Made by a program: the position numbers and the translations under genes. Source: a virus (taxonomy: Duplodnaviria > Caudoviricetes). Taken from it: a DNA stretch of 64,000 bases. Location: positions 1-64,000 of the IMG/VR virus record IMGVR_UViG_3300020577_008200. One strand, given 5' to 3'. Below, piece after piece: positions 14,003 to 36,276 of the stretch (positions are counted from its first letter, which is position 1; the number at the start of each line of letters is the position of its first letter). Below the pieces are notes generated by a model that was not told the origin of the DNA, did no database searches, and saw only the letters and a program-made list of their open reading frames with translations.

Positions 14003-14776
14003 TTACATTACCTCAATTTCAATAAGACGTTTATCTTCTTCCGGGAAGTTGGATTTAATACAGTTTAAGGTATCTAACACCTTTGTCAAGACTTTTCTTT
14101 TATGTATTTGAGAAATACTCTTAACTAAATGTTTAACTCTAATTACTACGAAACCGCCATTGATTAACAAACCGTTCTTCTTATTATCTGAAACTAAATG
14201 TTTAGCTAAATTTTCTTCACCCCAAATTGGGTAAAAGTGTGCCGGTCCATCAACTTCTATTACAGTATTTAATTCTGGTATATAGATATCCATTTCTAGT
14301 TTTTCACTAGCTACTAAGTGTGTTCTATGGAAATCTGGTTTATAACCATTTCTTCTAAGCTCTATCACTAAGAATCGTTCTAATTTGGACCCGAATTCTG
14401 CGGACTCTCTAACAGCTTCCGAAGCCGCTTTTCTAAATTCTTCTCTTTCATCATCAGGCATACTTTCCCAATTTTCCTTAGCAATTTGGGAACGCCTTGC
14501 TCTTTCATTCTCGCTCATATCCTGCCACTGTTTAGCGATAGCTTCACTTATCTTAATTTTAGTAGCTTCGGAACGTTTTTTCCCTTTAGTTGGATGATTA
14601 TGTCTTCCGCTTTCTAAAGCATCTTTTTGAGCCTCACTCTTATCTCTCATCTTAACACCGGCATCAGTCAAGATTCTCCTAACCTTATTTGGGTAGGTGC
14701 TAAATTCTTTAGCTATAGCGTAAGTGCTTTTTTTATCTATTATGCAAGCATTTATCACATATTCTTCAGCAGTCAT
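14003..14776 (-). CDS. NUMOD3 + DUF559/Vsr-like endonuclease (putative homing endonuclease)
   Basis: N-terminal HTH-like region, KGKKRSEATKIKISEA (NUMOD3-like), C-terminal EMDIYIPELNTVIEVDGPAHF PD-(D/E)XK motif. Confidence 0.7.
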   Translation of the reverse strand: MTAEEYVINACIIDKKSTYAIAKEFSTYPNKVRRILTDAGVKMRDKSEAQKDALESGRHNHPTKGKKRSEATKIKISEAIAKQWQDMSENERARRSQIAKENWESMPDDEREEFRKAASEAVRESAEFGSKLERFLVIELRRNGYKPDFHRTHLVASEKLEMDIYIPELNTVIEVDGPAHFYPIWGEENLAKHLVSDNKKNGLLINGGFVVIRVKHLVKSISQIHKRKVLTKVLDTLNCIKSNFPEEDKRLIEIEVM

Positions 14777-15237
14777 TTTGTTATTTCCAGTAATTTATCA
14801 ATATTGAAATCTTCTATAATATATTTTACTTTAGTGTTCCACATACTTTCGATTAGTTTAGCATGGTTTTTACATCTTGCAATTAAAATTAATTTTGGAT
14901 TGGAATAAATTTCTTCTAATTTTGAGTAATCTTTATCAATTAAATTTATCCATTCCAAATCCCAAATGTAAAAGAATTTATTTCTTATAGTAGGAATTCG
15001 GATAATATCTTGAGCCGAATTTAAATTAGTCGCAATCACAGGCCCGTCATATCCCCACATCTCTACTGATTGCATACAAGAAAATTTAGGGTCTAATGAA
15101 TACTTAATTAGATTTTCGTAGAAACCAATAATATCAGTTTTATATTCTTTTTCCAAATATAGATTTATATTATTTATAATAAGATAGCTTAATTGACTAG
15201 CCCCGAAACTAGAAACAGCTATTCCTAATTTTCTCAT
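14773..15237 (-). CDS. Hypothetical protein, glycosyltransferase-like fragment
   Basis: 154 aa, FFYIWDLEW and LIARCKNHAKLIE resemble the N-terminal Rossmann half of GT-B enzymes; coupled to GT genes. Confidence 0.35.
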   Translation of the reverse strand: MRKLGIAVSSFGASQLSYLIINNINLYLEKEYKTDIIGFYENLIKYSLDPKFSCMQSVEMWGYDGPVIATNLNSAQDIIRIPTIRNKFFYIWDLEWINLIDKDYSKLEEIYSNPKLILIARCKNHAKLIESMWNTKVKYIIEDFNIDKLLEITK

Positions 15238-16115
15238 TTTATCTCCAGTTGGTTGAACACTTGGTTTATACGATGTTCGTAAGTATGGTTATCTAGAATC
15301 CAGTTAGTAGAAATTTTACCAATTAATTCTTGATAAGTTTTGACAGTATCAACCATACAGTAATTACCAAAAAGATTTTCGTATTCTTTATTAGCTCCCA
15401 ATATTAAACATCGTCCTTTACAAGCTAATATCTTAAATATACGTTCGCTAGGTGAATATCCTTTATTATTAGTAACGCTGAGATTCAAATCTGAATTTGA
15501 TATTATATTACAAAATACATCGTTGTTAGTTATAATTCCCAGATGATTTGCTACTGACCAATTGCCGAAACCGTAGATTTTTATTCCAAAATCTAAATAT
15601 GGATAGATATATTTTTTAATATTCTCCTCTTTGGAGGGTTCCCACTGGCCGATGAAGCTTATTGGAGAATAATATCTATTATCTATATCTTTTGGTTTAA
15701 AACGGGTGATATCAGCAGCGGGTAAGCAGGAGAAGCACCTTATACCACTCCAATAAGGTAGGTAGTTTTCAAAATTTTGACTAAACATGGTTTGATATTT
15801 AGATTTTAATTGATTTACATATTTTTTTTCATCTTCAGTAGCATCTTCGTAATCATTTAGAAATATAATAGCTTTGGTTTCATCAAATTTGCTATCTAAT
15901 AGAACTTTAGTTAATGAGCGTGTTAAATCTCGACTGTGGCACCAGAACACATCAGGTTGGTAAGTATCAAAAATATCAAAAGAAGATATATTTTCATTAC
16001 CGTTCCACATTCTCACATCACAATCTTTCCTTAGAGACAGAGCGTTACTCCAACCGAGGGAGTGGCTTTGAATGTCGGGTGTGGTTGCCTTTCCTGCAAA
16101 AATTAATATTTTCAA
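15234..16115 (-). CDS. Glycosyltransferase, CgeB/Glyco_trans_1_2-like
   Basis: LPAAD...F.P, ISFIG.W, IKIYG...W, SERIFKILACKG, NHTYEHRI motifs. Confidence 0.75.
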   Translation of the reverse strand: MKILIFAGKATTPDIQSHSLGWSNALSLRKDCDVRMWNGNENISSFDIFDTYQPDVFWCHSRDLTRSLTKVLLDSKFDETKAIIFLNDYEDATEDEKKYVNQLKSKYQTMFSQNFENYLPYWSGIRCFSCLPAADITRFKPKDIDNRYYSPISFIGQWEPSKEENIKKYIYPYLDFGIKIYGFGNWSVANHLGIITNNDVFCNIISNSDLNLSVTNNKGYSPSERIFKILACKGRCLILGANKEYENLFGNYCMVDTVKTYQELIGKISTNWILDNHTYEHRINQVFNQLEIK

Positions 16116-16816
16116 AATTTTCCTTCCCCGGCTAATTTTTCAGCCTTTTCAATATCTTTAGAGTCATCTATTTCTTGGATGAACATACTTGGATTTTCAT
16201 ATACTTTTAATTTTAAATTATGTTTACTAATCATTTTATTAAGTATTTCATAAGTTAAAAATTTATCTTGATAAGAACGGTTTACTATAGCGTTAAATAA
16301 GTTCATATCTTTGTAATCTAAATACAGTATATGCGCCCATTTTTTAAGAATTGAATATGAAAAGTTAACAACTGCTTCATTTTCATATTTAACTCCTATT
16401 TCCATTGAGTCAAATTGGTCATTCGTATCTAAAACAATTCCACTTTTATCGAAATTTAAATTTTCAATTGTTTCTTTATTAAATATCAAGTCCCCATATA
16501 CTATCAGGTAGTTATTAGCCGGATATTTTTCTGCTGCTAAAGATATGCTTTTAGCAACATTAGTTGTTTTGTATTTATAGTTTAGTAAAACTTTTATTAG
16601 TTTTGAATCTAATTTTTCTTCTATATAAGTATTAACTTTTTCATACTCAAATCCGGCAACTACAACTATTTTGGAATTGGGATATTTATCTGTTAATATT
16701 TTAATTTGTCTATGTATTAAATTTTTATCTTCTATTATTAGAAGAGATTTAGGGCCGTAAGATTTCATTCTTCTTCCTAAGCCTGCCGCTGGTATAATTA
16801 TTACTAAATCATCCAT
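16112..16816 (-). CDS. Sugar/choline-phosphate nucleotidyltransferase (LicC/NTP_transf-like)
   Basis: IIPAAGLGRRMKSYGPKSLL, VVAGF, YGDLIF, EIDDSKDI motifs. Confidence 0.85.
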   Translation of the reverse strand: MDDLVIIIPAAGLGRRMKSYGPKSLLIIEDKNLIHRQIKILTDKYPNSKIVVVAGFEYEKVNTYIEEKLDSKLIKVLLNYKYKTTNVAKSISLAAEKYPANNYLIVYGDLIFNKETIENLNFDKSGIVLDTNDQFDSMEIGVKYENEAVVNFSYSILKKWAHILYLDYKDMNLFNAIVNRSYQDKFLTYEILNKMISKHNLKLKVYENPSMFIQEIDDSKDIEKAEKLAGEGKF

Positions 16817-17423
16817 TTGTTTTTACTCTTTTAATTGTATCTGACAGAATGATATCTTTTGAAATTTTGAAATCTTCTATTTTAGTAGTATTTTCTTTTT
16901 CAATATTGGAATAAAGAATTTTTGGTAAGTGATATAGAACATATTTTTCACTAATTCTTAACCATATATCCCAATTTTCTAACACGTTTAGATTTGGATT
17001 ATAAGAGCCGCATTTATCAAACACTTCTCTTTTAAAGAGTGCTGTATTTGGTATAGTATAACCATCAGTTATCTTTTTTCTATCGAATGATGTTAAGTAT
17101 TGTGGAATATTATTATCATTGATGATATTAAAATAATCAGTGTAAACTGCTCCAACATAGACTGAATGATTAATTATAGTTTTGAGAGTGTCTTCAATAT
17201 AAGTAGGAAATAATATTTGCTGACCTTCTATTAATAGAACATAATCAGTTTTAGCTATAGTTTCCAAACCTTTATTAATAATTTCAGCTTTATTATGATT
17301 TCCACCTATTGAAATAACTTTTAAGTTTTTATAGGTTTGAGACTTAATACTACTAATACATTTTTGAATTTCTTCTTCAGTATTATCTTTATTAATAATA
17401 ATTATTCCTACTGAATTATCCAT
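16809..17423 (-). CDS. GT2-family glycosyltransferase (degenerate DxD)
   Basis: CISSIKSQTYKNL, INKGLE, VGAVYTDY, LFKREVFDKCGSYN, EN(ED)WDIWLRIS. Confidence 0.75.
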   Translation of the reverse strand: MDNSVGIIIINKDNTEEEIQKCISSIKSQTYKNLKVISIGGNHNKAEIINKGLETIAKTDYVLLIEGQQILFPTYIEDTLKTIINHSVYVGAVYTDYFNIINDNNIPQYLTSFDRKKITDGYTIPNTALFKREVFDKCGSYNPNLNVLENWDIWLRISEKYVLYHLPKILYSNIEKENTTKIEDFKISKDIILSDTIKRVKTNG

Positions 17424-18219
17424 TTAATATCTCTTGATAGCTTTTAATTAGAAAATGTTGATTATTTTTATTAGCCAAATATTTTACTTTATCTTGTAAA
17501 GAGTTTAGTATTAAAGTGTCGTCTTGACAATCTTCATCAATTTTTGAGGCACGAATTGGATAGTTGCCTTCTAGATTTTTGTGTAATGGAAAATAAACAA
17601 AATCACCTATTTTATTTGTAACTATTAAAAATCTTTTTAATTCTACGTTGATAGCTTCATCTATATTAGCAACATACTCTTCATCTAGATTAGTTCCACT
17701 TTCCAGAATTAGATAATAGTCAGTCTTAACTTTATCTAAAGAAGTTTCTAAAGCGAATCTATCATTACTTAACATTCTATCTACTCTGAACGGTAGTTTT
17801 TGATTTTTAAGCTGTCTGATTAAATTTGGATATTTTATTTTGTTAGAGGTGCAGTTTAAGACTATCAATGAAGGTTTTACTAATTGTTTATTTAAACTTT
17901 TTAAAGTTATTTCTAAAGCAGAGCTATCTACATCTGTAATTGGGATTATAACTTCATAATTAACTAAAAGTTCTGCCCTAACTATTAGAGGGAGATTTAT
18001 TTTATTTTTACCTTCAGCCCATTGTGAAGGACGTTTAGCAGAACAGAAGCGTCCTTTAACAATCATAGTTGGAGTATTAGGATTTTGTCTTGGATGATGT
18101 ATATCGTCAATAAAACTTATTTCTGCTCCATTTTCTTTGAATTTTTCATATCTTCCTAATGAGCATTCTAAGTCTCCATCGTAAAATACACATCCTTTGC
18201 ATTTAGTTTCAATTTCCAT
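17416..18219 (-). CDS. Hypothetical protein, GT-A-like with N-terminal Cys cluster
   Basis: CKGC...CSLGR N-terminus; VIIP...LEITLKSL..Q...P..IV and TDYYLILE resemble GT2 fold. Confidence 0.4.
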   Translation of the reverse strand: MEIETKCKGCVFYDGDLECSLGRYEKFKENGAEISFIDDIHHPRQNPNTPTMIVKGRFCSAKRPSQWAEGKNKINLPLIVRAELLVNYEVIIPITDVDSSALEITLKSLNKQLVKPSLIVLNCTSNKIKYPNLIRQLKNQKLPFRVDRMLSNDRFALETSLDKVKTDYYLILESGTNLDEEYVANIDEAINVELKRFLIVTNKIGDFVYFPLHKNLEGNYPIRASKIDEDCQDDTLILNSLQDKVKYLANKNNQHFLIKSYQEILNG

Positions 18220-18692
18220 TATATTCTTTGTGCCTCTATTACAAAATTATAATCTTCAAAATATTTCTTAGTTATTTTAAGTCCTTTAGACTTTAGAGCT
18301 TCCTCTAAGGATATGATATTTAAACCACATTTTCTTAGGTTCCATTTTCTATCTTGTCCACCAAATAATAACTCGTTTAGTTTTAATAGGTTAATATCTC
18401 CTCTAATGTAAGCTTTATAACTTTCATCCAGGTCTATATCTGAAATGTAAATAGTGCCATTTTTGCGAAGTTTACTAATCCAATTGTTTAACATATTATC
18501 TACTTTGTTAGAATCAAAGTAGGTTAATATTTCATGAACTCTTATTTCTTCACATTCATTATCATCCACATATTCATCTAAATTTGAGATATCTGTTTTG
18601 ATTCTAGCATCTCCAACTTCCATCATACATGGGTCAAGATTAAGATAGCCGGACAATACATTTCCATTATCTATAAGTAAATTTACTTTCAT
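18219..18692 (-). CDS. SAM-dependent methyltransferase-like protein (type 11-like)
   Basis: GYLNLD, DISNL...DNECEEI...EILTY, W..KL..NG.I.I.D.D pattern common in glycan loci. Confidence 0.65.
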   Translation of the reverse strand: MKVNLLIDNGNVLSGYLNLDPCMMEVGDARIKTDISNLDEYVDDNECEEIRVHEILTYFDSNKVDNMLNNWISKLRKNGTIYISDIDLDESYKAYIRGDINLLKLNELLFGGQDRKWNLRKCGLNIISLEEALKSKGLKITKKYFEDYNFVIEAQRI

Positions 18693-19678
18693 GCTCTGCT
18701 TGTCCCCTTATATACTATATTAGTAGCTTGACTGAATATCTGATTCCAATTAGAAACAAATTGTTCTACTGAGTGATTAAGAAGTATTTGTTTGTTGGCT
18801 CTTATTCCTATTGTTCTAAACCATTCTTTATTTTTAATATAAATTTCTGCATATTTTAACAGATATTCAGGATATTTTTCGTCAACTAATAAACCTGTCT
18901 TTTTATGAGTAATAACTTTATTAATTTCACAGTTATCTAAAGCTATTACTACAGCTCCAGTATACATAGCTTTTAGAACTTGTGTGGGTTGAGGAACAGA
19001 TAATGTTGGGTTGATATAGATACTAGCTTTATTAAACTCTTCAATTTCATCTTGCCAATGAATATGTTTAGAAATACCAGGATTGTGACCAATAATTTTT
19101 ATTGGCAACTTTATGTTATGGAATAATTTCCAGTAGATTCCAAACCCATGACTATTTCCTTTTCTTTTCCAACTGTTAATAGCTGTTAGTATTGTTTTAC
19201 TTTTATTTTCGTTATAACTATATAAATGTTGATTGATAGCATTATTTATAATAGTATATTCATTTTCTTTAAAACCCCAACTTTTAGCCTGTTCGTGAGT
19301 AACAAATATATTAATATCACCTGAAATTTTTTCATTATTATATTTATCAGGATATTCCTGTTCTACTATAACTAATGGGATATGTAATTCTTTTGATATC
19401 ACAACACATTCTTTTAAATGTTTCTTTCTTCCTAAACATAAAATTAAATCAAAAGTTATTCCATTCCCTTTTATTTTATTTATCTCAGTGTAATTTTCTG
19501 GGATTAAAGCAACGTCGTTTCTCCATCTTTCCTGTCTTAAATTGAGAGCGAAAAAGTTATGGTTGGTTTTGCAGAGAAGGCTCTCGTATTCCTCACTGGT
19601 TGTGAACAGTAAAATATTAAGCGGCTCTCCATTTTGACGAGTAGCCGCTCTAATTATTGAATTTACCGCTGAAGACAT
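18689..19678 (-). CDS. GT4 (GT-B) glycosyltransferase
   Basis: INNAIN, ASIYINPT...P..VLKAMYTGAVVI, ITHKKTGLLV, F...WNQIF. Confidence 0.8.
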   Translation of the reverse strand: MSSAVNSIIRAATRQNGEPLNILLFTTSEEYESLLCKTNHNFFALNLRQERWRNDVALIPENYTEINKIKGNGITFDLILCLGRKKHLKECVVISKELHIPLVIVEQEYPDKYNNEKISGDINIFVTHEQAKSWGFKENEYTIINNAINQHLYSYNENKSKTILTAINSWKRKGNSHGFGIYWKLFHNIKLPIKIIGHNPGISKHIHWQDEIEEFNKASIYINPTLSVPQPTQVLKAMYTGAVVIALDNCEINKVITHKKTGLLVDEKYPEYLLKYAEIYIKNKEWFRTIGIRANKQILLNHSVEQFVSNWNQIFSQATNIVYKGTSRA

Positions 19679-19730: not shown

Positions 19731-20453
19731 TTACTTACCGTCCAGTAGTTTCAAGATTTTCCCGATGAGTCCATTTCGGACGATATCGCTTTCATCTAGT
19801 TCTACCACTCCTATATCTTTATCTTCGTTGAACAATCTATCCGCTGTTACAGAGAATGCGCTTCTACTTCCTATTAAATCCTCTTTTCTCCACAAGTCAG
19901 TTTGTTCTCCATCACCAGTTATAACCATCTTAGAATCTTTACCCATTCTGGATAATAACATTTTAATTTGAGTCATAGTACAATTTTGAGCCTCATCAAT
20001 TACGACGAACATCTCGTCAAATGTAACACCTCTCATAAACTCGCAGGTGTCAATAACTATTTTATTTTCTTTAACTAAATCTGCTAACTCTCTTTCTCCA
20101 ATCAATTTACTGAAAAGTTGATAGAAAGCGGCCATATGTGGCCCTAATTTATCTTCCTTTTCTCCAGGTAAAAAACCTATAGGACGCCCACATTCTTGTA
20201 ATGGACGAATTACTAATAATTGTTTATACTTATTAGCCTTTAGATATTCTAAACCTTTAGATAAAGCAATATGTGTTTTTCCAGTTCCAGCAGGCCCATC
20301 GCATATGATAAATTGGCAGTGTTCAATAGTTTCTAGATAATATTTTTGACCTTCAGTTAATGGTTTGGTTTTATTTTTGTCAAGTTTTTTCTTAAAGAAT
20401 TCTTCAGTCTTTTTATCAAAAACTTCACGTTCAGGATTATCAAACTTACTCAT
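19731..20453 (-). CDS. phoH: PhoH family ATPase
   Basis: GPAGTGKTHIA, RP..ECG..IGFLPG..EDK, FMRGVTF, IDEAQN, GD.EQTDL, DIVRNGLI. Confidence 0.95.
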   Translation of the reverse strand: MSKFDNPEREVFDKKTEEFFKKKLDKNKTKPLTEGQKYYLETIEHCQFIICDGPAGTGKTHIALSKGLEYLKANKYKQLLVIRPLQECGRPIGFLPGEKEDKLGPHMAAFYQLFSKLIGERELADLVKENKIVIDTCEFMRGVTFDEMFVVIDEAQNCTMTQIKMLLSRMGKDSKMVITGDGEQTDLWRKEDLIGSRSAFSVTADRLFNEDKDIGVVELDESDIVRNGLIGKILKLLDGK

Positions 20454-21552
20454 AGAGTATCCTTTTAATTTGAGAACCTATCACTTCATGTGAGTAATCA
20501 AAAACTTTATTGATACCAGCTTCCGATTTCAATTCTCTTTTTTTATGGTTTTCATAAGCTTCACGCATACACTGTCGAAGATGAGGTATCGAAATAGAAC
20601 CCCAAAGTTCTTTGCCATAAAATAGCTTGGCCGGATTATCTTGTAAACCAAAAACGGGAGTTAGGTTGTAATCAACCTTCCATCCCGTTTCGTCATCTAT
20701 GTAATCACTATAGCCACCATAACCATTAACAATTGGTGTTTTACCGAAACCCATACTATCTATACACGGAATTGAAAACCCTTCACCATATGACGTAGAA
20801 ACAAATACGTTACAGCTATTATGTATACTATAAATTTCATTATCAGACAAATACTCACTTGGAAGAACTATTTCTTCTTTTGTTTGTCCTAATTTTAGAC
20901 CGTCTTTTAATTTTTTAATAAAATCTCTACTATTTATATTTTCATTTTTTGTATCTAAGAGAAATTTTATTACTATATTAACAGGCTCATTTTTATCAAA
21001 TTCTAAATGGAATGCTTGAACAAAAGCCCCGAAGTTCTTACGACGAGAGAAGGAACCAGAGATGGAATAGAAAAGGAAGTCAGTGTGCCTTTCCTGCTCA
21101 ATTTGTTTGTAGGCTGGATAACTTTGCAAAAATACAGAAGTGTCGCAACCGAAGGGAACAACTCGAATAGGTTTCCTGATACCGCTCACTTCACAAGCTC
21201 GTTTAACAAAATTAGATGGAACCCAAATTTCATCCATCATATTTAAACGTTCTGGCCACTGTGACATTTTAAAATCACTAGTATGATAGTTGACATAAGC
21301 TATGTTCTTTTGAAACTCACCTTCATAAATTAACATTTCTGGTGGAACGTGTTGGATGATTACATCAGTTCCTTTAATCTTTTTGCTTTCTAATTCCAGA
21401 AATTTTTCGTCTAATTTTCCTTGAAAGTCATTAAGTTTAATAGGTCTAATACAAATATTCTCTCCAGTCTCATTTAGAGAAGATATAAGATTCAGAGAAC
21501 CTTTAGAGGCACCAGTACCATCCCGATATGGACCAATATATAATATACTCAT
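20446..21552 (-). CDS. GT4 glycosyltransferase
   Basis: MDEIWVPSNF, RKNF..FV.AF..EF, CNVFVSTSYGEGFSIPCIDSMGFGK. Confidence 0.9.
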   Translation of the reverse strand: MSILYIGPYRDGTGASKGSLNLISSLNETGENICIRPIKLNDFQGKLDEKFLELESKKIKGTDVIIQHVPPEMLIYEGEFQKNIAYVNYHTSDFKMSQWPERLNMMDEIWVPSNFVKRACEVSGIRKPIRVVPFGCDTSVFLQSYPAYKQIEQERHTDFLFYSISGSFSRRKNFGAFVQAFHLEFDKNEPVNIVIKFLLDTKNENINSRDFIKKLKDGLKLGQTKEEIVLPSEYLSDNEIYSIHNSCNVFVSTSYGEGFSIPCIDSMGFGKTPIVNGYGGYSDYIDDETGWKVDYNLTPVFGLQDNPAKLFYGKELWGSISIPHLRQCMREAYENHKKRELKSEAGINKVFDYSHEVIGSQIKRILYE

Positions 21553-22046: not shown

Positions 22047-22382
22047 TTAGATTTTGTAATATCTGCTGGCTCTGTCAACCAAACTTGTAACTGTATACCT
22101 AAGACTATTTGGAATTTCTGTACTTTTTTGAACAAATTTTACAGAATTCAACTCTACAGAATTATTAATAGCTTTGTTAATACCAATTTGTTTGTCAAAA
22201 TTTTCAAGTGTGGTATTACATTTACTCCAGCCAACTTTTACCTCATCGTTTTGTTTATAAGCTAGTGCTAGTCCGACTGGACGCCCATGTTTATCACGAA
22301 GATATTGGACTAGAAACTTTGGACCCAAAACCTGTTGATTTTCCTTTTTACAATTTTCGATGTATTCATTTCTATTATTCAT
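22047..22382 (-). CDS. Hypothetical phage protein
   Basis: 111 aa; KVGWSKCN...NFDKQIGINKA motif; coupled to upstream gene. Confidence 0.6.
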   Translation of the reverse strand: MNNRNEYIENCKKENQQVLGPKFLVQYLRDKHGRPVGLALAYKQNDEVKVGWSKCNTTLENFDKQIGINKAINNSVELNSVKFVQKSTEIPNSLRYTVTSLVDRASRYYKI

Positions 22383-24121: not shown

Positions 24122-24535
24122 TTAAAATGGTGGAGGTGCCTCAGTGCTTTGAATATTTTTTTGTGGAGTGGTTTTGGCTTTTGGTTGAGTTTTTGCTGGT
24201 GGAGCATTATTAGTAGTATCATTTTCGTCAACAGCTTTTCTGTCTACGAACCAAAAATCACTAACGGTAATCTTGTGCTTACTTCTTTTGTCACCATCTT
24301 TTTCCCATGTTTCAAACTTAAGTTTACCTTCTAGTAAGATTCTAGAACCTTTTTTGAAATATTTTTCTAATACTTCAGCACGATTACCCCAACATTCACA
24401 ATCAATGAACATTGTTTCTTCTTTATCCTTATATTTTTCATTTACAGCAACACCAAACTTTGCTACTTTATGTTCCCCAACATCTTTTACCTCAACGTCT
24501 CTAGTTAGATTACCCATTATCGTACTCTTATTCAT
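24122..24535 (-). CDS. ssb: Single-stranded DNA-binding protein (likely start MNKSTIMG at 24535)
   Basis: MNK..IMGNLTRD, F.VAVNE, FIDCECWG, KGSRILLEGKL....WEK OB fold; C-terminal PPF tail. Confidence 0.95.
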   Translation of the reverse strand: MNKSTIMGNLTRDVEVKDVGEHKVAKFGVAVNEKYKDKEETMFIDCECWGNRAEVLEKYFKKGSRILLEGKLKFETWEKDGDKRSKHKITVSDFWFVDRKAVDENDTTNNAPPAKTQPKAKTTPQKNIQSTEAPPPF

Positions 24536-24579
24536 AATAACCCTTTTTATAATTGTGTAGATAGCTTTAGCTACCAAAT

Positions 24580-28250: not shown

Positions 28251-28713
28251 TTAATTCTCCGCCAAATGTACTAGTATATTGTTCAGCATCTTCTGAACTT
28301 GGCATCCAGTCTTTAATTTCTTGTAAGGCTTCTGGTGAAATCCATAAATCTTTGTATTTATCCCCTGAATAATATTTATCACCCGGAACAGATGGAGTTT
28401 TTATAACTATAAGTTCACTATCTTCTACAAATTCTATTCCATAAACTTGATTTGGTTCTGTGACCCAGATAAAACCTTGTTTAGCTTCAATAATCCACTG
28501 TTTACCATCAACTATTTTCATAGTGTCAAATTTTATTTTACCTTTGATTAGATAGTTAATTTCAGTCATTTTTTTATGGAAGTGCCCATCACTTTTATCG
28601 CCAGCTTTATGTTTCAAATGTCCAACTTCAAAAGCTTCGCTTATAAATGCGGAAGGATAAAAATTACCAATGAACCAGCCATTTTTCATCCAGTCAATAC
28701 TGTATAAAAGCAT
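28228..28713 (-). CDS. Cupin-fold protein of sugar-nucleotide loci
   Basis: GWFIGNF.P, H.H....EINY.I.G, IKTPSVPGDKY. Confidence 0.7.
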   Translation of the reverse strand: MLLYSIDWMKNGWFIGNFYPSAFISEAFEVGHLKHKAGDKSDGHFHKKMTEINYLIKGKIKFDTMKIVDGKQWIIEAKQGFIWVTEPNQVYGIEFVEDSELIVIKTPSVPGDKYYSGDKYKDLWISPEALQEIKDWMPSSEDAEQYTSTFGGELIENYKRS

Positions 28714-28731: not shown

Positions 28732-29916
28732 TTAGTTTCCATTTTTCATTAAACGACATTGATGCCGGCCTCCATCGAAAGTTTCTTCGGTTAGTGAATA
28801 GATAACATCTTCTAATTTTCTAGTTTCCGGAAAATCATGTGCAGATAGAGCAAAGAAGTTGGCCGCATTATGTTTGATAGCATAACCAGCGTGATATTCA
28901 TCTTGAACCAAAGCAGAGCGAATTCCTGGTATTTTATTAGCACAAATATTAATACCCTGTCCGCTACGACAAATTCCTAAACCAAAAAATGGTCTATTAT
29001 TAAGGACAAACTTTGCAGTAGTTTCTACATAAGTATTATAATCACAATCTTTATCATTATAACAACCAAAGTCTATATAAGGAATTTTATTTTTTTCCAT
29101 TATTTTCTTGATTTCATCTTTTACTTTAAAACCAGAATGGTCACTACATAACGCAAAAGCTCGCGGTTTAGCTAGATATTTGAAAGATACTTCCTCAAAA
29201 AATTTGAATTCTTCGGGCGTCCCCATAATATGAATTTTGTCGATTTTTCGATATTCGACCTCATCTGAATTTGTTATTCTGTTATAGAGAGGAGCAATAT
29301 GGGCTTCACCACTAGGATTATATTGGCTTTTTACTGATACACTATTCAGATACGCCCATGCATGTTCAGCAAATAATTTGCAACTTTGAAAACAGTAGAC
29401 TCCGACATTAGCTAAATTACTAGGTCTAACCACTTTTTCCCAAACAGAAGAAACTAAATTTTTATCATTTATATCTATATAACTATAGTTAGGACTATTA
29501 GATTTAAAAACTAAAGTTTGACCCGCAGTTTTAAAGTCATAGTTATTTGGTTTAAAGATTGGTGTAAAAGAAATATCGGGACAAAGTATAATTAAAGGAT
29601 TTTCATCATCCGGATTAATGCCAGCTAACACGGTTTCTATTGCCCCTTTAGTTTCTCGGTGAAGCTTAGTAACACCAATATCTTTACCGAACTTATATTG
29701 CAACCATTCAAACATACCGAAATCCCGGATATGTTCTTCTCTTACTACAAATTCTATTTCGCATTCTGTAGTATCAATAGATTGCATAGACCATTCTAAA
29801 ATACTTCTATCTCCACAAATCAACATAGGTTTGGGAAGTTTAAAACCTCCGGCAGTCATGCGAGAGCCGCGACCAGCTAGAGGGACTACTAACTTGTACG
29901 GCTTAGATGTTCTCAT
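28732..29916 (-). CDS. Nucleotidyltransferase fused to RpiB/LacAB sugar-phosphate isomerase
   Basis: N-terminal VPLAGRGSRM...GFKLPKPM, MGTPEE; C-terminal SDHSGF..K, D.DY, GICRSGQG..I.ANK.PGIRSA, HNAAN, F.GGRH.CR. Confidence 0.9.
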   Translation of the reverse strand: MRTSKPYKLVVPLAGRGSRMTAGGFKLPKPMLICGDRSILEWSMQSIDTTECEIEFVVREEHIRDFGMFEWLQYKFGKDIGVTKLHRETKGAIETVLAGINPDDENPLIILCPDISFTPIFKPNNYDFKTAGQTLVFKSNSPNYSYIDINDKNLVSSVWEKVVRPSNLANVGVYCFQSCKLFAEHAWAYLNSVSVKSQYNPSGEAHIAPLYNRITNSDEVEYRKIDKIHIMGTPEEFKFFEEVSFKYLAKPRAFALCSDHSGFKVKDEIKKIMEKNKIPYIDFGCYNDKDCDYNTYVETTAKFVLNNRPFFGLGICRSGQGINICANKIPGIRSALVQDEYHAGYAIKHNAANFFALSAHDFPETRKLEDVIYSLTEETFDGGRHQCRLMKNGN

Positions 29917-30655
29917 TGACTTCCTTTAACCATTGTAATACTTTAGTATGCGCATACTCTTGACTATTTTTGATATAAGATTCCGGATTATTCATTCTAT
30001 GTTCAATGAAGTAACCAGCAAACCTATCACCAGCGCCCACCGTAAAAAGAAAATTTTCTTTTTGATGCCAATAATGACTAACATTTATCCCGTCTGACCC
30101 GCAAGTATCACCAAAGAGATGAGACACGTCTTTGATTTTTTTGGGTTGGCAGGCCACACTTCCCTGCGAAGAATGCTCAACGAGCCATCCTGAAAAGTTG
30201 GAACTTGGTTCAAACAAAAAATGTTTTAAAAGGTTTTGATTATCTTCATTACTTAAAAAAACATAATCGCAACAAGCAATATTATTGTAAGCTTTTGATA
30301 AATCAAATGTAAAGTAATGTTTAGTTAAATCACAAGACTTTATCTTTGCTTCTACTTTTGTAAAGTCAATATTAATCAAATTAGCATAAGCTAAATGAAC
30401 CCAACCGTAACCAGCTTTACTATACGGACCTTCTACTGGACATTGATATCCTTTATCAATAGTTGATTCTGTCCCATGATGAGTTATTAGAATATTAGCG
30501 GTATTCTTTTTTAGAGCAATTTTAGTACCCTGTTTAATATTATGAATTCCACCATCTTGAATTATTCTTTTATATTTTCCATCATAATTAATGATATCAA
30601 TAATATCTAAGAATTCATTACCAATAACACAAAGCTTATCTTCATTAAGATTCAT
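29903..30655 (-). CDS. PfkB/ribokinase-family carbohydrate kinase (divergent)
   Basis: C-terminal TVGAGDRFAGYF anion-hole motif; DYVFLSNED. Confidence 0.7.
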   Translation of the reverse strand: MNLNEDKLCVIGNEFLDIIDIINYDGKYKRIIQDGGIHNIKQGTKIALKKNTANILITHHGTESTIDKGYQCPVEGPYSKAGYGWVHLAYANLINIDFTKVEAKIKSCDLTKHYFTFDLSKAYNNIACCDYVFLSNEDNQNLLKHFLFEPSSNFSGWLVEHSSQGSVACQPKKIKDVSHLFGDTCGSDGINVSHYWHQKENFLFTVGAGDRFAGYFIEHRMNNPESYIKNSQEYAHTKVLQWLKEVNENI

Positions 30656-31589
30656 AAGGGTATCTCTGAATTATTTTATCTTTGACTTGTTCATAGAGGG
30701 CGTCAATTACTCCATCTCCACCATTTCGGTTAAGAATAGTAGCATTTTGTTTAACAATACTAGAGGCATTTTGAGGACAGTAGGGATGACCAACTACATT
30801 TAAAGCTGATAAATCATAGTAATCATCTCCCACATAAGCTATATCTTCTAATTTAAACTTGTATTCTTCTGCTATTTTCTCTATAGCAATAGCCTTATCT
30901 AACTGTTTAGAATAATTTCTAGCATTGAAGAATGGTAAACTTCGACTTAGAGCCATCCCGGAGTTGAAGTTGTCCCCGCTAAGTAATAGAACTGGTATAC
31001 CAGCGGACTTAAACCGTTTAATTGCAGTAAAGTCTCTATCACAAAATTCTTTAGATAATACATTGTGTTCACTATCATAAGTTTTTCTTCCGTTAGTTAG
31101 GACTCCATCTACATCTAGAATGAGAAGTTTGAAGGCTTCTCCTATTTTTTCGTTGTCATATTCAAGATTTGGATAATTCGTAATTATTCCATAAGCTTCA
31201 CAAGTTGTTGACCAATCTAAATCTACAACAATATCTTTATTTCCAAAATCACGACATTTACCAGAATTTTGATGCCAGATTCGGTAACCTTGAGAGGTAA
31301 TACTCACATCATCTAAACTTTGAAAGAAGGAATGTATTTGTTTATATCTGAGTAAATATTCAAAAGTCTGCCATGTTTTAGCATGTGCTAAAATACGACT
31401 GTCTTCTAAAAATTCTCTAACAATTTCATCTTTTGGCTCATCATGACCTAAGTAAAGTTTACCATCTTTTAGGCGAATGTCAAGTTCTACATTATATCCT
31501 TTGTTAAAACAGTTCCATGTTGCTATTTTAGTATTTTCTAAATTAATATTAGAGCCGTTTTGATTAGCCCTGTGTGCATAAACTTTCAT
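30645..31589 (-). CDS. GDPD-like domain fused to KdsC/YrbI-like HAD phosphatase
   Basis: AHRAN.NG....EN...VELDI...LGHDEP N-terminus; LILDVDGVLTNG, RD..AI, LLSGD, AYVGDDYYD, GGDGVI C-terminus. Confidence 0.85.
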   Translation of the reverse strand: MKVYAHRANQNGSNINLENTKIATWNCFNKGYNVELDIRLKDGKLYLGHDEPKDEIVREFLEDSRILAHAKTWQTFEYLLRYKQIHSFFQSLDDVSITSQGYRIWHQNSGKCRDFGNKDIVVDLDWSTTCEAYGIITNYPNLEYDNEKIGEAFKLLILDVDGVLTNGRKTYDSEHNVLSKEFCDRDFTAIKRFKSAGIPVLLLSGDNFNSGMALSRSLPFFNARNYSKQLDKAIAIEKIAEEYKFKLEDIAYVGDDYYDLSALNVVGHPYCPQNASSIVKQNATILNRNGGDGVIDALYEQVKDKIIQRYPYES

Positions 31590-32556
31590 TTATCACCTTT
31601 CCATAATCTTGGTATAAATTTTCCCAACTCCACTCTTTATAGAGAGGTTCTAAAGGAACCGTTCCATTTTGGATTATAGTTTTTAGTGTATTTTTACATA
31701 AACAAATACTTGGTTCAACCTTATGAACATGATGAAACATACCATCATTACTCACCGCAATAGGGCGACCGGCAGCAATCGCCCAATCTATTACGCTGGA
31801 ACAAGCATTATGTGCCACACTATTGCGATACATAAAAACATTAGCTGTATTTTGAGCCAACCAGTATAATAATTGTTGAGAATCTAAATATTCGTGAGAA
31901 AATTCTAATTTAATTCCGTGTTTAACTGGAATTTTTTCTAGCCTATTTCTCATAGAATAGGCGTAAGACCCAGAACTATCTACAATAGTATTCAATGGAA
32001 GACGAATTCTAACTGTAGCCTCATCAAATTCTTCGTTAACCTTATGAACTACCTCATCAAAACCTTTGTGATTAAAACCAAAGCCAAAAGTCCCGATAGT
32101 ATTTTCTAGAACTGGAGCTATTTTATAGTAACCGTTTTCATCTCTAATCATATTTTCAGGATAGAAAAACGGTATAGGTCTTCCTACTTTGTAATCAATT
32201 CCATTAGAGATATAGGTTGGGTCAGGATGTAATATTACAGTATTATTAAATATCTTTCTTTCGTCATGCATGATAACAGCAGAAGGCAGTTTTGTGGTGG
32301 TTATTACATCGTTATTTAACCAGCTCATAGTTAATGGATGGTGGTTGTAGATTACAAAACAGTAAGACTTATTTTTTAATCTTTCATATAAATCTTCTGG
32401 TTTAGACGCTTCTACACATTCGTAATAGTAAAAATCTTGTTCATTATCAATCAGTTTATTATAGGATATTTTAAATAATATTCTTCCAGTCCAATAACCG
32501 AATTCATAAACGCCACATTGGGCTTTGGGCTGAACTACAAAAAGAACTTTTTTCAT
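31564..32556 (-). CDS. Glycosyltransferase-like protein (GT-B; likely start MKKV at 32556)
   Basis: CGVYEFG, IGTFGFGFNHKGF, SSVIDWAIAAGRPIAVS, WSWENL. Confidence 0.7.
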   Translation of the reverse strand: MKKVLFVVQPKAQCGVYEFGYWTGRILFKISYNKLIDNEQDFYYYECVEASKPEDLYERLKNKSYCFVIYNHHPLTMSWLNNDVITTTKLPSAVIMHDERKIFNNTVILHPDPTYISNGIDYKVGRPIPFFYPENMIRDENGYYKIAPVLENTIGTFGFGFNHKGFDEVVHKVNEEFDEATVRIRLPLNTIVDSSGSYAYSMRNRLEKIPVKHGIKLEFSHEYLDSQQLLYWLAQNTANVFMYRNSVAHNACSSVIDWAIAAGRPIAVSNDGMFHHVHKVEPSICLCKNTLKTIIQNGTVPLEPLYKEWSWENLYQDYGKVINESLCTQG

Positions 32557-32648
32557 TACAGAATCCAAATAAGAATACAAACTATTATTACAAATATTAA
32601 ATATACTAAATCATTTTTGCAGTTACATTTATGATTACATTGACTCAT
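32556..32648 (-). CDS. 30-aa membrane peptide (not in ORF track): MSQCNHKCNCKNDLVYLIFVIIVCILIWIL
   Basis: Translated by hand; fills the gap, and its TAA overlaps the next ATG (TAATG). Confidence 0.5.
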   Translation of the reverse strand: MSQCNHKCNCKNDLVYLIFVIIVCILIWIL

Positions 32649-32654
32649 TTTTTC

Positions 32655-34883
32655 TCACATTATTGGTGTAAAATATGGTTCTTCTTTACTATCGTCCCAA
32701 GACCAATATCCAGGTTCCGGCATTGCTACTAAGAATTTCCCACCTCTTTTGAGATAGTCAACATGTCTTTTTAAAAAGAAATTAGTAAAGTGCCACGGGA
32801 GTATGAGTAAGAAATCCGGCTCTTTAATAAATCCCTCAGTTTCACTAATGATTGGTATATCAGAACCAATAGCGTATTTACCAAATTTATCTTTGCTAAC
32901 TTCTAATATATAAGGAATATCTTTGTTAGTTAAGTTACACATTTGTAAAAATGTGTTACCTTTAGTAGATGCTCCAAGTCCGAAAACTGTTTTACCACAT
33001 TTGTTTATTTCATTAATAAAATTAGTAGTAACTTGGTTAATTTTTGCTATTTTTTCATTAAACTTTTCCCAATATCCGAGTTTGAATATTTCTTTCTCGT
33101 CTTCCATTGCCTTCAATGCAGTAAATGTCACTCCTCGTTGGGCACCAATATGTTGAATGTAAAGTCTGACGGAAGCTCCGTTGACATCATTGTATTCCAA
33201 ATCAAAGATTTCCATATCATGTTTAGCTAGTAATTTTTTCATTACTTCCAACGTGTAATATCCTATATGCTCAAAGCATATATTATCATAGGCATTAGTT
33301 TTAATAGTACACATCAAGTCTGTCATTTGAACAACCCAAATCCCGCTCTTACATAAGTATTTTTTAATACTTCTGATAAATTTATCCGGGTCTTCTAAGT
33401 CATAAAACATAGCAATAGAAGTGATAATATCAAAGGGCAAAGAATAATGTATACTATCGTCAAAGTAATTATTGATAAATATATCGCAATTGTTGATAGC
33501 GTACCCAGCGAGGTTATTAGCCGGGTCGTAACCTGTCTTAAAGAATTTATCTGGGTAGAACGATAAGAGCGTGCCATCGTTACAATTATGAACTCCTATA
33601 TTGTTTGCTATATAAGCGTTTTCATCTTCAACTTCAAAGTTGTAAACATTAATATTTTCTACTTCTTCAAATGAATTATTTTTAACTCTAACAAAAATAA
33701 AATTATCATTTGTTTTATACAGACATCTATCTTTATCTTCTTCTATAATTCCTGGTTCTAATAAAGATATTTTTTGTCCACTTATAGTTAACCTATAGGA
33801 GTCATTAACGAAATGTATATTCGTTGATATTCCTAACTGGATTAATAATTGTTTTATTCCATAAATTAGTTCTTTTGATACTGATGTTACTATGTATTGA
33901 TAACCACCACTAGTCATATATCTGAGATGACCATCTCCCCTCATATAATGTTTAATTAATTCAATTTTACATTCATCTGACCAATTATAAATTTCTTTAT
34001 TTATGAATTTATGATGAGAATATTCCCCAAATAATCTTTTAACTTCTGTGGCAAAATCTTTAGAATAAATTCTTAGGTCAATAGTATTTTTTTCAGGACG
34101 AATAGATTTTGTTGTATTTAAACCTAATCTTTTTGATGCATCCTCTAATTGTTTAATATAATGTTCTTCATGAATACCTAAGCATAAATTAATTCCACAA
34201 ATTAACGGTTTATGGGAATGAATATATGAGCCTTCAGCTAAAAACCAGCCATATATTAATAATCTATCTTTATCTATTTGCAAATTTTTGCTAGACTTTA
34301 TTCTTGGAATTGAAACATATTCTCCTTTTTTGAAATCTTTAATTTGCTTATATTCTAATTTATCATTAAGAATAGGATGTTCTTCAGTTGCAGATAAGTT
34401 AAATCCATGCATAGTAGATAAATTATAAATTTTACCAGTATATTTTCTAGTAAAAGTTTTTAAAACTTTACATTCTTTATTATTTGGAGTTAAGACATAG
34501 TCTCCCTCTTTAATATCTTGAATATTTTTTGTAGAATAATCTGACATTCTAATTTTAGTATCAGATGGAAAACATCCAATATCCATTACCCGTTTATACG
34601 ACTGAGGACTTTTAGCTAGTGACTTCGTCACTATATCTTGGAGAGCAGTTACCATCGTATTATTCAAACCGGAACGATACCAGTATTCTCTGTACATATT
34701 ATCAGGTTCTAACACGTTTGTCAACTGGACAAATTCGCATTTGGGACACTGAGCTAAGGCTAGTTCTTCTGTATCAAATTTTACTTTATCTTCTGGTTTG
34801 TCTAAAAATAAAGAAGGATAAATATCTCCTAAATTTACCACAGTATTTTCATATTCATTTTTACATAAAAAACATTTTGTCAT
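32655..34883 (-). CDS. NDP-hexose C-methyltransferase (Methyltransf_13/14 type), intein-interrupted (likely start MTKC at 34883)
   Basis: C..C Zn finger, L.QC.KC.FVQL, YWYRSGLN, DIG/CNDGTLL, AMFYDL, YDNIC.EH.GYY, GLGASTKGNTFL, LILPWHF. Confidence 0.9.
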   Translation of the reverse strand: MTKCFLCKNEYENTVVNLGDIYPSLFLDKPEDKVKFDTEELALAQCPKCEFVQLTNVLEPDNMYREYWYRSGLNNTMVTALQDIVTKSLAKSPQSYKRVMDIGCFPSDTKIRMSDYSTKNIQDIKEGDYVLTPNNKECKVLKTFTRKYTGKIYNLSTMHGFNLSATEEHPILNDKLEYKQIKDFKKGEYVSIPRIKSSKNLQIDKDRLLIYGWFLAEGSYIHSHKPLICGINLCLGIHEEHYIKQLEDASKRLGLNTTKSIRPEKNTIDLRIYSKDFATEVKRLFGEYSHHKFINKEIYNWSDECKIELIKHYMRGDGHLRYMTSGGYQYIVTSVSKELIYGIKQLLIQLGISTNIHFVNDSYRLTISGQKISLLEPGIIEEDKDRCLYKTNDNFIFVRVKNNSFEEVENINVYNFEVEDENAYIANNIGVHNCNDGTLLSFYPDKFFKTGYDPANNLAGYAINNCDIFINNYFDDSIHYSLPFDIITSIAMFYDLEDPDKFIRSIKKYLCKSGIWVVQMTDLMCTIKTNAYDNICFEHIGYYTLEVMKKLLAKHDMEIFDLEYNDVNGASVRLYIQHIGAQRGVTFTALKAMEDEKEIFKLGYWEKFNEKIAKINQVTTNFINEINKCGKTVFGLGASTKGNTFLQMCNLTNKDIPYILEVSKDKFGKYAIGSDIPIISETEGFIKEPDFLLILPWHFTNFFLKRHVDYLKRGGKFLVAMPEPGYWSWDDSKEEPYFTPIM
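33585..34574 (-). mobile_element. Intein (330 aa) with LAGLIDADG homing endonuclease
   Basis: Starts CFPSDTKIRMSD, block B ATEEHP, LAGLIDADG-like YGWFLAEG and YMRGDG, ends VYNFEV...YIANNIGVHN followed by +1 Cys. Confidence 0.95.
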
Positions 34884-35929
34884 TAGACTTTCCTTAATAG
34901 TTCTTTCCAATCGTTTAAGTTTCGTTCAAAAGAAAAGTGTTTAATAGCGGCCTTGCGACCGTTTTCAGAAATACTTTTAGCTAATGTTTTATCTTTAATT
35001 AGCAGGAGAAGCATCTCACGCAATTCCCTAATATCATCGCTCCAGAAACCTGAGACACCATTTTCAATAAATTTGTGTGCTTCAAAGGTAGGCATATCTT
35101 CTCGCGGACTTCCTATCTTTGGACCTACTGAAACTAGTGGAATACCAGTAGATAGAGCTTCCATAAAAGAATATGTAAATGGGCCGGGTTTAGTGCAAGT
35201 AGAGAAGTATACTCCGGCTCTCTTTCTTAGATTATGAAGTTCCGTAGGAGTTAAATTTCCAGCGGAAAATTCAATATCTTCATTCTCGAAGCCGCCTACT
35301 ATTCTATTCATTCCCTGAGTAACTAAATTATATTCCGGCCAAGCTGCATGTTGACCCCGTTTCTTCATCCATTTATTAATAGTGAGAACGTAATCATCTT
35401 CGCCGGTCCAACCTTTGTATAATTCAGTATCTACGAACGGACGAATAATAGCGTCGTTTTTTGCTAAGCGATTGATATATCTTTCAGTTGGTGAGTATGC
35501 TACAGTCTTAGTATATTTAAGATATTTACTAAAATGCATTTGAGGTTGACCAATATATCTCATGATAATTGGTTTACCTTTAATAGATTCCCAATTCAAA
35601 GTTAAATTTTCTTCAAAGTGAGCAATAACAACTAAATCAAAAAGTTGAGCAAAATCTTTTTTAACTCTATTATAGTAAGCCCCGAGAACTTCATTAATAG
35701 TTAAAGTGTCAAACTTTTTAACTAATCCTTCATAATTGTGGCCAGCTTTATATTTTTCTAATAATTCTTCATCAAACTTAATATTCAAAGCCCCATCTTT
35801 AGTTGGATGTAGAGGTTTTCGAGGGTCTATATAGTGCCCAATAGAAAAAACTTGGTGACCAAGCTTATCTAATACTGTTAACTCGTCCGCTTCTAGCGTT
35901 TCATGGCAACTTAGGTATAGAATCTTCAT
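34883..35929 (-). CDS. GT4 glycosyltransferase
   Basis: AGVYFSTC..P.P...SFMEALSTGIPLVS, FIENGVSGF, ISENGRKAAIKHFS. Confidence 0.85.
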   Translation of the reverse strand: MKILYLSCHETLEADELTVLDKLGHQVFSIGHYIDPRKPLHPTKDGALNIKFDEELLEKYKAGHNYEGLVKKFDTLTINEVLGAYYNRVKKDFAQLFDLVVIAHFEENLTLNWESIKGKPIIMRYIGQPQMHFSKYLKYTKTVAYSPTERYINRLAKNDAIIRPFVDTELYKGWTGEDDYVLTINKWMKKRGQHAAWPEYNLVTQGMNRIVGGFENEDIEFSAGNLTPTELHNLRKRAGVYFSTCTKPGPFTYSFMEALSTGIPLVSVGPKIGSPREDMPTFEAHKFIENGVSGFWSDDIRELREMLLLLIKDKTLAKSISENGRKAAIKHFSFERNLNDWKELLRKV

Positions 35930-36276
35930 TTAATTTCCATTCCAGTTACCGGGTCATATCTAGTAACGTCAGTTCCATCTGGGTCGTAATAATCAAAAAA
36001 TTCTGTAATATAACAGTCTGTTAAAGATGTGAGTCTATTATAATAAGTCGCTGGAATATTAATATAATCTCCATCTTTCAGAACTTTGTTGAAAGCATTA
36101 TAACATAGAGAACTGTCTCCATGATAGACTACAAGTTCTCCTTTGTCAACCATAATTATCTTATTTTTCTTTTCATTTCGATGCCAACTTGTGGAGTAGC
36201 CCTTTTTAATAAAAAGTTTTTTCCCTAATTTACCGATATGTTCTTCCCATCCCCAGGGTTTAGACTTGAAACTCAT
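35926..36276 (-). CDS. Cupin (mannose-6-phosphate isomerase type II C-terminal-like)
   Basis: KPWGWE, STSWHR, V.KGEL, L..GD.I.IP. Confidence 0.7.
   Translation of the reverse strand: MSFKSKPWGWEEHIGKLGKKLFIKKGYSTSWHRNEKKNKIIMVDKGELVVYHGDSSLCYNAFNKVLKDGDYINIPATYYNRLTSLTDCYITEFFDYYDPDGTDVTRYDPVTGMEIK

Follow-up and report, generated by a model that had tools for sequence, protein, structure and literature searches.

The window analysed here is the first 64 kb (64,000 nucleotides) of the 73-kb IMG/VR virus record IMGVR_UViG_3300020577_008200, the completeness of which is estimated at about 48%. Its minus strand carries, between 14.8 and 36.3 kb, a dense series of sugar-related genes lying among genes of DNA replication. 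With a probability of roughly 0.6, these are read as a resident glycan-synthesis gene set in two units, belonging to an uncultured phage with a DnaE-type polymerase and predicted from its domains to make activated sugars for a C-methyl-branched glycan. Cluster A (14.8-24.0 kb), with seven transferase-like proteins, a nucleotidyltransferase and a protein of methyltransferase fold, dates back to the ancestor of a wide clade. Cluster B (26.4-36.3 kb), seen in three contigs, came later, as an insertion of ~10 kb into the gap of the split dnaE gene of a sub-lineage.

In some marine phages, at least a tenth of the genome is given over to sugar clusters. To this the window adds a clade outside the T4-like phages, represented by at least 77 viral contigs, whose replication genes are passed on together with an ordered set of transferases. 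A second addition is a compact and nearly virus-only activation module (at least 201 viral contigs), the presence of which in two cultured Synechococcus phages makes both pathway and target open to bench testing. The clade, the placement within a replication operon and a split polymerase gene, the module and an intein in a sugar-tailoring enzyme are the new elements.

Gene content and inheritance of the two clusters

Ten open reading frames (ORFs) resembling glycosyltransferases were identified between 14.8 and 36.3 kb. Alongside them are two nucleotidyltransferases, one kinase of PfkB type and one phosphatase of KdsC type, an RpiB domain, a sugar 3-C-methyltransferase that an intein interrupts, another protein of methyltransferase fold and two weak cupins. 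An earlier note made from the sequence alone had counted about nine transferase-like genes. With the WavE-family protein included there are ten, and those that it listed were recovered, with the qualification that two (beginning at 17416 and 34883) are weak assignments and a third (14773) is half a GT-B protein. The two nucleotidyltransferases, kinase, isomerase, phosphatase and WavE protein that it named are all present, the kinase by the match of its family profile to PfkB and the others by Pfam or NCBIfam. Low-threshold Pfam searches of the orphan ORFs yielded noise only, apart from weak cupin matches.

Overlaps of 1-32 nucleotides (nt) between neighbouring genes occur along the region, the sugar genes being interleaved, as had been noted earlier, with phoH, ssb, the three dnaE pieces and guaC, and also with a gene for a DnaQ-like exonuclease. 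Sugar genes overlap phoH by 8 nt, the fingers piece of dnaE by 32 nt, guaC twice, by 28 and 23 nt, and the gene of the exonuclease by 4 nt. The glycan genes are probably co-transcribed with the replication genes. Gene coordinates given below refer to the minus strand of the window unless the plus strand is named.

Two related contigs allow the history of the region to be followed. Contig G001 (70 kb) is collinear with the record from 11.7 to 73 kb, all interleaved genes included, at identities of 25-50% for the transferases and 50-73% for the replication proteins. Contig G011 is nearer, with most proteins 57-69% identical and collinearity across the 18 kb compared. The half GT-B protein (14773-15237), the marker of cluster A, belongs to a family with members in 77 IMG/VR contigs, the longest of 169 kb; one of the 77 is complete (141.8 kb, with terminal repeats). 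Around this marker, cluster A genes keep the same strand and consistent offsets in 29-54 of the 77 loci, with SSB and the OB piece of DnaE coming into view at the limit, 10 kb out, of the stretches compared. Because viral contigs G001 and G011 are collinear with it and the cluster A marker recurs in 77 viral contigs, the record derives from a real phage, and a host chromosome or chimera is excluded.

The two clusters differ in age. DnaE is also found in two pieces in five wider-clade genomes, but the gap there is only 0.9-2.4 kb, and cluster B is therefore a later insertion. The full-length nucleotidyltransferase-RpiB fusion gene of cluster B was found in none of these five large genomes, of which one has terminal repeats and one matches the nucleotidyltransferase half alone, and among 49 clade records both halves were found only in G011. 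The guaC gene is younger still and was acquired after the cluster B insertion, since it is present in G011 and absent from G001; two small ORFs are, like guaC, variably present among relatives. The view that these are long-resident phage genes and no recent host island is thus upheld by the synteny survey that the earlier note had called for, with the refinement that residence applies to two units of different age, cluster B and guaC being the younger. As a separate observation, nine wider-clade records match the nucleotidyltransferase half of the fusion only; in one (G010, L237:4191-5567) the matching part is the C-terminal half of a protein of 458 aa, behind an N-terminal domain of ~220 aa without an assignment. 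The WavE, fusion, GDPD-HAD and exonuclease genes of G011 (C1:8000-26000) each appear as two ORFs, a pattern that may reflect frameshifts of the assembly, genuine splits or decay.

The marker of cluster A encodes a stand-alone N-terminal (acceptor-side) domain of 154 aa with GT-B fold (AF2 pLDDT 94), 148 of the 154 residues of which align to GT4-type enzymes (VIA Z 15.2-11); judged by this model, the protein is half a transferase. It adjoins a Glyco_trans_1_2 (CgeB-like) glycosyltransferase (15234-16115; PF13524, E=5e-8), homologues of which occur in 29 of the 77 clade loci. The second sugar-activating enzyme of the region, a MobA/IspD/GlmU-N-like nucleotidyltransferase (16112-16816; PF12804, E=2e-10, all NCBIfam matches being below cut-off), has homologues in 54 of these loci. 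A short GT2-family glycosyltransferase (16809-17423; PF00535, E=4e-6) is followed by a GT2-like (GT-A) protein (17416-18219) that is weakly assigned, having no Pfam match and an Atlas score of 0.91 with TM 0.55 to GT2 clusters on a poor Atlas model (pLDDT 0.52). Inspection by eye of these adjacent ORFs (16809-18219) shows E-G-Q and E-S-G at the place expected for DxD.

ORF 18219-18692 encodes a 157-aa protein of class I S-adenosylmethionine (SAM)-methyltransferase fold (AF2 pLDDT 93). Foldseek returned 405 PDB matches at E<=1e-3, and all those listed are methyltransferases. This second methyltransferase of the earlier note is accordingly supported by fold, but its sequence lacks the usual glycine-rich SAM loop (GxGxG); the first, the C-methyltransferase of cluster B, is supported by Pfam. 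Three GT4-type glycosyltransferases complete cluster A: 18689-19678 (PF13692 and PF00534, both above cut-off), 20446-21552 (PF00534, E=6e-10; orthologues 47-57% identical in G001 and G011) and the 543-aa product of 22379-24010 (PF00534, E=2e-9), which has a canonical EX7E motif at residues 328-336. A PhoH-like ATPase gene (19731-20453; PF02562, E=2e-57) lies between the first two and makes the 8-nt overlap with the second. The border between the clusters is formed by SSB (24122-24577; PF00436, E=3e-24) together with the dnaE pieces.

Cluster B contains a WavE-family putative glycosyltransferase (26452-27231; PF07507, E=2e-7), of a family (cluster 7) found near the sugar-nucleotide module in 22 loci. 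The GMP reductase gene guaC (27204-28250; NCBIfam NF003470, 457 bits, above cut-off) is a lineage-specific insertion within the cluster; its nearest cellular matches are ~56% identical (Planctomycetota) and uninformative as to host. The two cupins that had been noted are present but weak (Cupin_2 E about 0.01). One is a small cupin at 28228-28713 (E=0.014; family representative, E=1e-4). The other, at 35926-36276 (E=0.009), makes the 4-nt overlap with the exonuclease gene and falls in one cluster with a protein of Synechococcus phage Bellamy annotated as cysteine dioxygenase. Between them lie the genes of the module. ORF 28732-29916 encodes a fusion of a sugar-1-phosphate nucleotidyltransferase (N-half, PF00483) and an RpiB-type isomerase (C-half, PF02502). 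ORF 29903-30655 encodes a short sugar kinase of the PfkB/ribokinase family (250 aa) which has no Pfam match of its own; its family alignment shows an invariant GAGD, and its profile matches PfkB kinases in the PDB (E=8e-16). ORF 30645-31589 encodes a mini GDPD-like domain (residues 1-150) fused to a KdsC/YrbI-type HAD phosphatase (about 150-314; NCBIfam KdsC subfamily, E=3e-22, and PDB matches). The family profile of this N-domain matches GDPD (E=3e-4), with H-R, E-D and H-D motifs. Further along are a glycosyltransferase of GT-B fold from a virus-dominated family (31564-32580; no Pfam match, Atlas model pTM 0.84, TM 0.78-0.88 to GT4 clusters), a nucleoside diphosphate (NDP)-sugar 3-C-methyltransferase of the MtmC/TcaB9/KijD1 family with an intein (32655-34910; Pfam Methyltransf_13, _23 and _14) and a GT4-like glycosyltransferase that is weak by Pfam (34883-35929; PF00534, E=4e-4, below cut-off), with orthologues 48% (G001) and 69% (G011) identical. 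The DnaQ-like 3'-5' exonuclease gene (36273-36914; PF00929, E=6e-18) is the upstream border of the cluster.

The sugar-nucleotide module and its predicted chemistry

The module consists of five domains, namely mini-GDPD, KdsC-like HAD, short PfkB kinase, nucleotidyltransferase and RpiB. Homologues of the fusion protein number 570 in a large protein collection, and an alignment-based search placed relatives in at least 201 viral contigs; a single-sequence scan of viral contigs had given no match, and an alignment query was needed. A collection of cellular genomes (185,579 species) gave 6 full-length matches, all in metagenome or single-cell assemblies. The module is almost exclusive to viruses. 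Two Synechococcus phages, Bellamy and SynMITS9220M01, possess it, the fusion being annotated as 'phosphatase' in both. HAD, kinase and fusion genes follow one another in an almost fixed order across 88 loci: the HAD lies two genes upstream of the fusion in 72 of them, and the kinase immediately upstream in 75. A cupin of ~106 aa usually comes after the fusion (directly after it in 39 loci), and a ~147-aa protein with GDPD motifs is a common partner, fused to the HAD in the window and in four other loci. A literature search found no paper on an RpiB-nucleotidyltransferase route in phages and none on the module. In other viral contigs (loci L003-L082) the module lies beside genes for GT11 (fucosyltransferase-type), GT6, sulfotransferase, GT-D-like and short-chain dehydrogenase/reductase (SDR) proteins, suggesting that ocean phages with the module may make fucosylated or sulfated glycans.

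Catalytic residues are well conserved in the module. The Asp-His, Cys, His-Asn and GGRHxxR residues of RpiB do not vary among 30 fusion proteins and can be aligned with RpiB of Clostridium thermocellum (PDB accession no. 3he8). The HAD carries the motifs DVDGVLT and GDD. The kinase gives weak matches to each of three models, those of ribokinase, ribose-1-phosphate kinase and heptose kinase, and the first two score better than the last. In the RpiB domain (28732-29169), C-R-S-G-Q-G is the sequence of the loop that follows the catalytic Cys; it is (nearly) invariant in the 30 fusions and differs from the usual C-G-T-G-x-G, and the extra Arg beside the catalytic Cys may reflect a different substrate. 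As for the C-methyltransferase, its G001 orthologue aligns over residues 11-415, end to end, with MtmC (PDB accession no. 4rv9, E=5e-35). Its architecture comprises a zinc-binding N-domain with two Cys-x-x-Cys pairs, a SAM domain and a C-terminal domain. NDP-hexose 3-C-methyltransferases of this family, to which TylC3 is also assigned, act on 4-keto sugar nucleotides.

These domain identities and residues, with the gene order and distribution, are consistent with a route of four activating steps. The RpiB domain would convert a ketose phosphate to an aldose phosphate, the short PfkB kinase would phosphorylate it at C1, the KdsC-like HAD would remove the distal phosphate and the fused nucleotidyltransferase would make the NDP-sugar. 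The small cupins and the MtmC/TcaB9-type enzyme would place a 3-C-methyl branch on a keto-sugar nucleotide, and the product would be transferred by the two GT-B proteins and the WavE-like protein. Assembly is predicted to be cytoplasmic, because all of the enzymes are predicted to be soluble. The proposal of the earlier note that the phage builds its own activated sugars and a methyl-branched glycan is plausible.

Two known routes follow the same four-step logic. In nucleotide-heptose pathways the steps are carried out by GmhA, HldA/HldE or HddA, GmhB, and HldC or HddC. HldA and HldE-N are also PfkB kinases, and the nucleotidyltransferase of the window gives a weak match to HddC (E=2e-4). GmhA, however, is a SIS protein, and no SIS domain was found in the region by Pfam or NCBIfam; the HAD is KdsC-like and not GmhB-like, no GT9 heptosyltransferase was seen, and the heptose-kinase model rfaE_dom_I matches weakly in 5 of 26 members of the kinase family (best E=2e-3). 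The second route is the phage UDP-D-arabinofuranose pathway for arabinosyl-5-hydroxycytosine DNA (RB69 gp51, gp52:53 and gp55; DLP3 gp81-83; HY126 AfhE and AfhF; PMC13326640). It likewise combines an isomerase, an anomeric kinase, an HAD phosphatase and a nucleotidyltransferase, with one pair of activities fused and several GT-B genes nearby. Its isomerase is of the SIS type, whereas the window has only RpiB (PF02502), and its kinase is of APH fold and fused to the nucleotidyltransferase (AfhE type), whereas the window has a separate PfkB kinase and a nucleotidyltransferase fused to RpiB. The KdsC-type HAD of the window is a further difference. Judged by domain assignment, every step of the module is represented by an enzyme family or fusion different from those of the heptose and UDP-arabinofuranose routes.

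Large multi-transferase clusters with sugar-nucleotide genes have been described in cyanophages P-SSM2 (PMC1079782) and S-SCSM2R, the latter with 13 glycosyltransferases (PMC12801897). The annotation of the Bellamy genome also shows a large carbohydrate cluster (genes 200-224). The claim of the earlier note that the pathway is more complete than the single-transferase cassettes of many phages is overstated in view of these clusters. Like the region studied here, the cyanomyovirus clusters belong to large lytic phages and combine many transferases with sugar-nucleotide enzymes and no export machinery. Genes 204-206 of Bellamy are homologues of the HAD, kinase and fusion genes in the same order, the fusion being 39% identical over 97% of its length. 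The cyanomyoviruses are T4-like (Kyanoviridae), whereas the phage of the window, with its split DnaE-type polymerase, is not. The window further differs in the siting of its genes inside the replication operon and dnaE gap, in having no SDR epimerase or dehydratase and in its intein-bearing C-methyltransferase.

The acceptor and rival explanations

No membrane segment was predicted in any protein encoded between 12.5 and 40 kb, and no priming or phosphoglycosyl transferase, flippase, polymerase, ligase or ABC exporter was found. A conserved acceptor intrinsic to the phage is favoured over variable host surfaces because the ordered transferase set is kept on one strand in 29-54 of the 77 loci. 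Tentatively, and at somewhat less than even odds, the acceptor would be a protein made by the phage, most plausibly one of the virion; an acceptor other than a phage protein, the host envelope or DNA is rather unlikely. Autonomous cytoplasmic glycosylation of virion proteins is known in chloroviruses and mimivirus. Among phages, it is described for mycobacteriophages (Freeman et al. 2023, as cited in PMC12801897 and PMC12619734). Such systems share with the window soluble virus-encoded transferases, their own sugar-nucleotide enzymes, methylated sugars and the lack of lipid-carrier or export genes, and the half GT-B protein matches a chlorovirus transferase (PDB accession no. 3oy2, Z 11.7). 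The mycobacteriophage glycosylation genes adjoin capsid genes, whereas those of the window do not. Virus-autonomous glycosylation would extend to many ocean phages should the virion, or some other component of the phage, prove to be the acceptor. A fuller version of this reading, that the module supplies an NDP-sugar by an undescribed route (e.g. an NDP-pentofuranose or an unusual heptose) from which about ten soluble transferases and the C-methyltransferase build a branched cytoplasmic glycan on a component of the phage itself, is doubtful as a whole. If true, it would be a bacteriophage counterpart, widespread in the ocean, of the self-sufficient glycosylation of chloroviruses and mimivirus.

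Several points weigh against a resident pathway that makes and attaches a glycan of the phage's own. No dehydratase or reductase was found in the window, whereas an SDR enzyme is present at 71 of the 88 other module loci, and therefore either a host intermediate must be assumed or the chemistry differs. The usual reaction of RpiB would yield ribose 5-phosphate, which the cell already has, so that its true substrate is in doubt. A motif scan found canonical EX7E in only one of the four GT4-like proteins and did not find DxD in the GT2-like ORF 16809-17423; some transferases may be inactive or unusual. The siting within the replication genes points to expression at early or middle stages, a timing that suits DNA or the host surface more than the virion. 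Finally, soluble O-antigen and LPS (lipopolysaccharide)-core transferases exist, so the missing membrane proteins leave room for the host envelope.

This last target, one of three that the earlier note had proposed, was weighed as a reading of its own: the transferases would act on lipid-linked or LPS-core acceptors of the host, host enzymes would make, flip and ligate them, and the altered surface of the infected cell would, for example, block superinfection or keep progeny off debris. The host surface is a long-standing guess for the 'LPS' clusters of cyanophages (PMC1079782, PMC12801897), and it suits the early or middle expression context, the match to the WavE (LPS core) family, the GT4 folds resembling WaaG, WaaB and PglA and, elsewhere, the neighbourhood of the module, where genes of the kinds usual in O-antigen loci (GT11, GT6, sulfotransferase and SDR) are found. 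It is opposed by the missing membrane and export functions listed above and by the ordered transferase orthologues across 77 contigs, which would not be expected for hypervariable host O-antigen, and it is considered fairly unlikely. A lesser chance still is given to sugars on the phage's own DNA, an anti-restriction hypermodification like that of T4 or the arabinosylated RB69 and DLP3. It would explain the embedding of the genes in a replication operon among dnaE, ssb, dnaQ and nucleotide-metabolism genes, is compatible with the predicted solubility of all proteins, and shares its activation logic and multiple GT-B enzymes with UDP-arabinose DNA arabinosylation; a language-model similarity of 31564-32580 to clusters carrying the PF11440 AGT domain is a lead only. 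Yet a ThyA-family hydroxylase or hydroxymethylase (the 5-hydroxy-dCMP synthase of the UDP-arabinofuranose route is a ThyA homologue), TET/JBP and C5-methylase were not found in the 73-kb record (~48% complete), where only ThyX is present. A ThyA homologue (PF00303) is likewise missing from four clade genomes at least 90% complete, and the ThyA family from the complete module-bearing genomes Bellamy and G003. No AGT profile match occurs in the record, and ten transferase-like genes, a C-methyltransferase and, elsewhere, sulfotransferases go beyond any known DNA glycan. Among the targets first suggested, DNA is thus disfavoured, while virion and host surface both remain.

It is, lastly, very improbable that the region is an accumulation of separately acquired auxiliary genes, some of them decayed, with a pathway in appearance only. 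Such a history would fit the two layers of different age, the coming and going of guaC and the two small ORFs, the transferases without canonical motifs, the transferase that is half a GT-B and the G011 genes seen as two ORFs. The single strand and tight overlaps, an order kept over deep divergence (25-50% identity) and the invariant catalytic residues of the module argue instead for one system, as does the retention of the half GT-B in 77 contigs.

Inteins, the split polymerase and other genes of the contig

The C-methyltransferase gene is interrupted by a LAGLIDADG intein of 330 aa (33585-34574) lying within the SAM motif. Its ends are Cys113 and His-Asn442, followed by Cys443. The motif is interrupted after DIG, and predicted splicing would give DIGCNDG, as in the intein-free orthologue; the intein is absent from the C-methyltransferase of G001. 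A second intein-bearing ORF (660 aa) lies beyond the window (contig 64700-66682). Two genes of G001 are oversized, namely those of the ribonucleotide reductase (RNR) large subunit (1185 versus 816 aa) and the DnaE fingers piece (678 versus 364 aa), and possibly hold inteins at other sites.

DnaE is encoded by three ORFs: an OB piece (24768-25373) and a fingers/HhH piece (25389-26483), both assigned by Pfam, and a PHP-plus-palm piece (37767-39794; phrog_405, E=6e-138). A split intein was considered for dnaE and rejected, the translated pieces having no split-intein ends.

Nearly all genes from 12.5 kb to the end of the contig lie tightly packed on the minus strand. In addition to the DnaE ORFs, the DnaQ-like exonuclease, SSB and PhoH, its replication genes encode a primase, DnaB and a RecA/UvsX-like protein; nucleotide metabolism is represented by both RNR subunits, a dNMP-kinase-like protein, GMP reductase and ThyX, and further genes encode a NADAR protein, ClpP and a sigma-70 region-4 protein. 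DnaE and RecA have less than 31% identity to their best matches among 50,697 phage records, and therefore no cultured relative is known; a megablast search of the DNA of the region against the same records gave no match. No tRNA genes were found. The genome of this uncultured DnaE-type phage is estimated at 150-165 kb, and the Tara Oceans origin of one family member is the sole environmental hint.

The plus strand encodes very large proteins between 1 and 12.4 kb. These probably form a tail module (1-12393, plus strand), with a 2070-aa tape-measure-like protein first, then proteins of 346, 470, 1020 and 206 aa. The likeness of the 2070-aa protein to tape-measure proteins is limited to a short N-terminal motif, and the 1020-aa protein had no match among phage records. 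The 470-, 1020- and 206-aa proteins adjoin cluster A again in 23-54 clade loci. A two-way terminator-like hairpin (12466-12487; 8-bp stem with 5 GC pairs, detected on both strands) lies between this module and the converging replication/glycan operon; otherwise, the counts of a promoter and terminator scan were not above those of shuffled sequences.

Beside the cluster A marker, ORF 14003-14776 encodes a 257-aa protein with a weak NUMOD3 match and, by eye, an endonuclease-like C-terminal motif. It resembles a homing endonuclease and is syntenic in 75 of the 77 clade loci. Just downstream of the first dnaE piece is the gene of the NADAR-domain protein (40118-40588; PF08719, E=5e-20), a family tied to ADP-ribose processing, for which a counter-defence role is possible.

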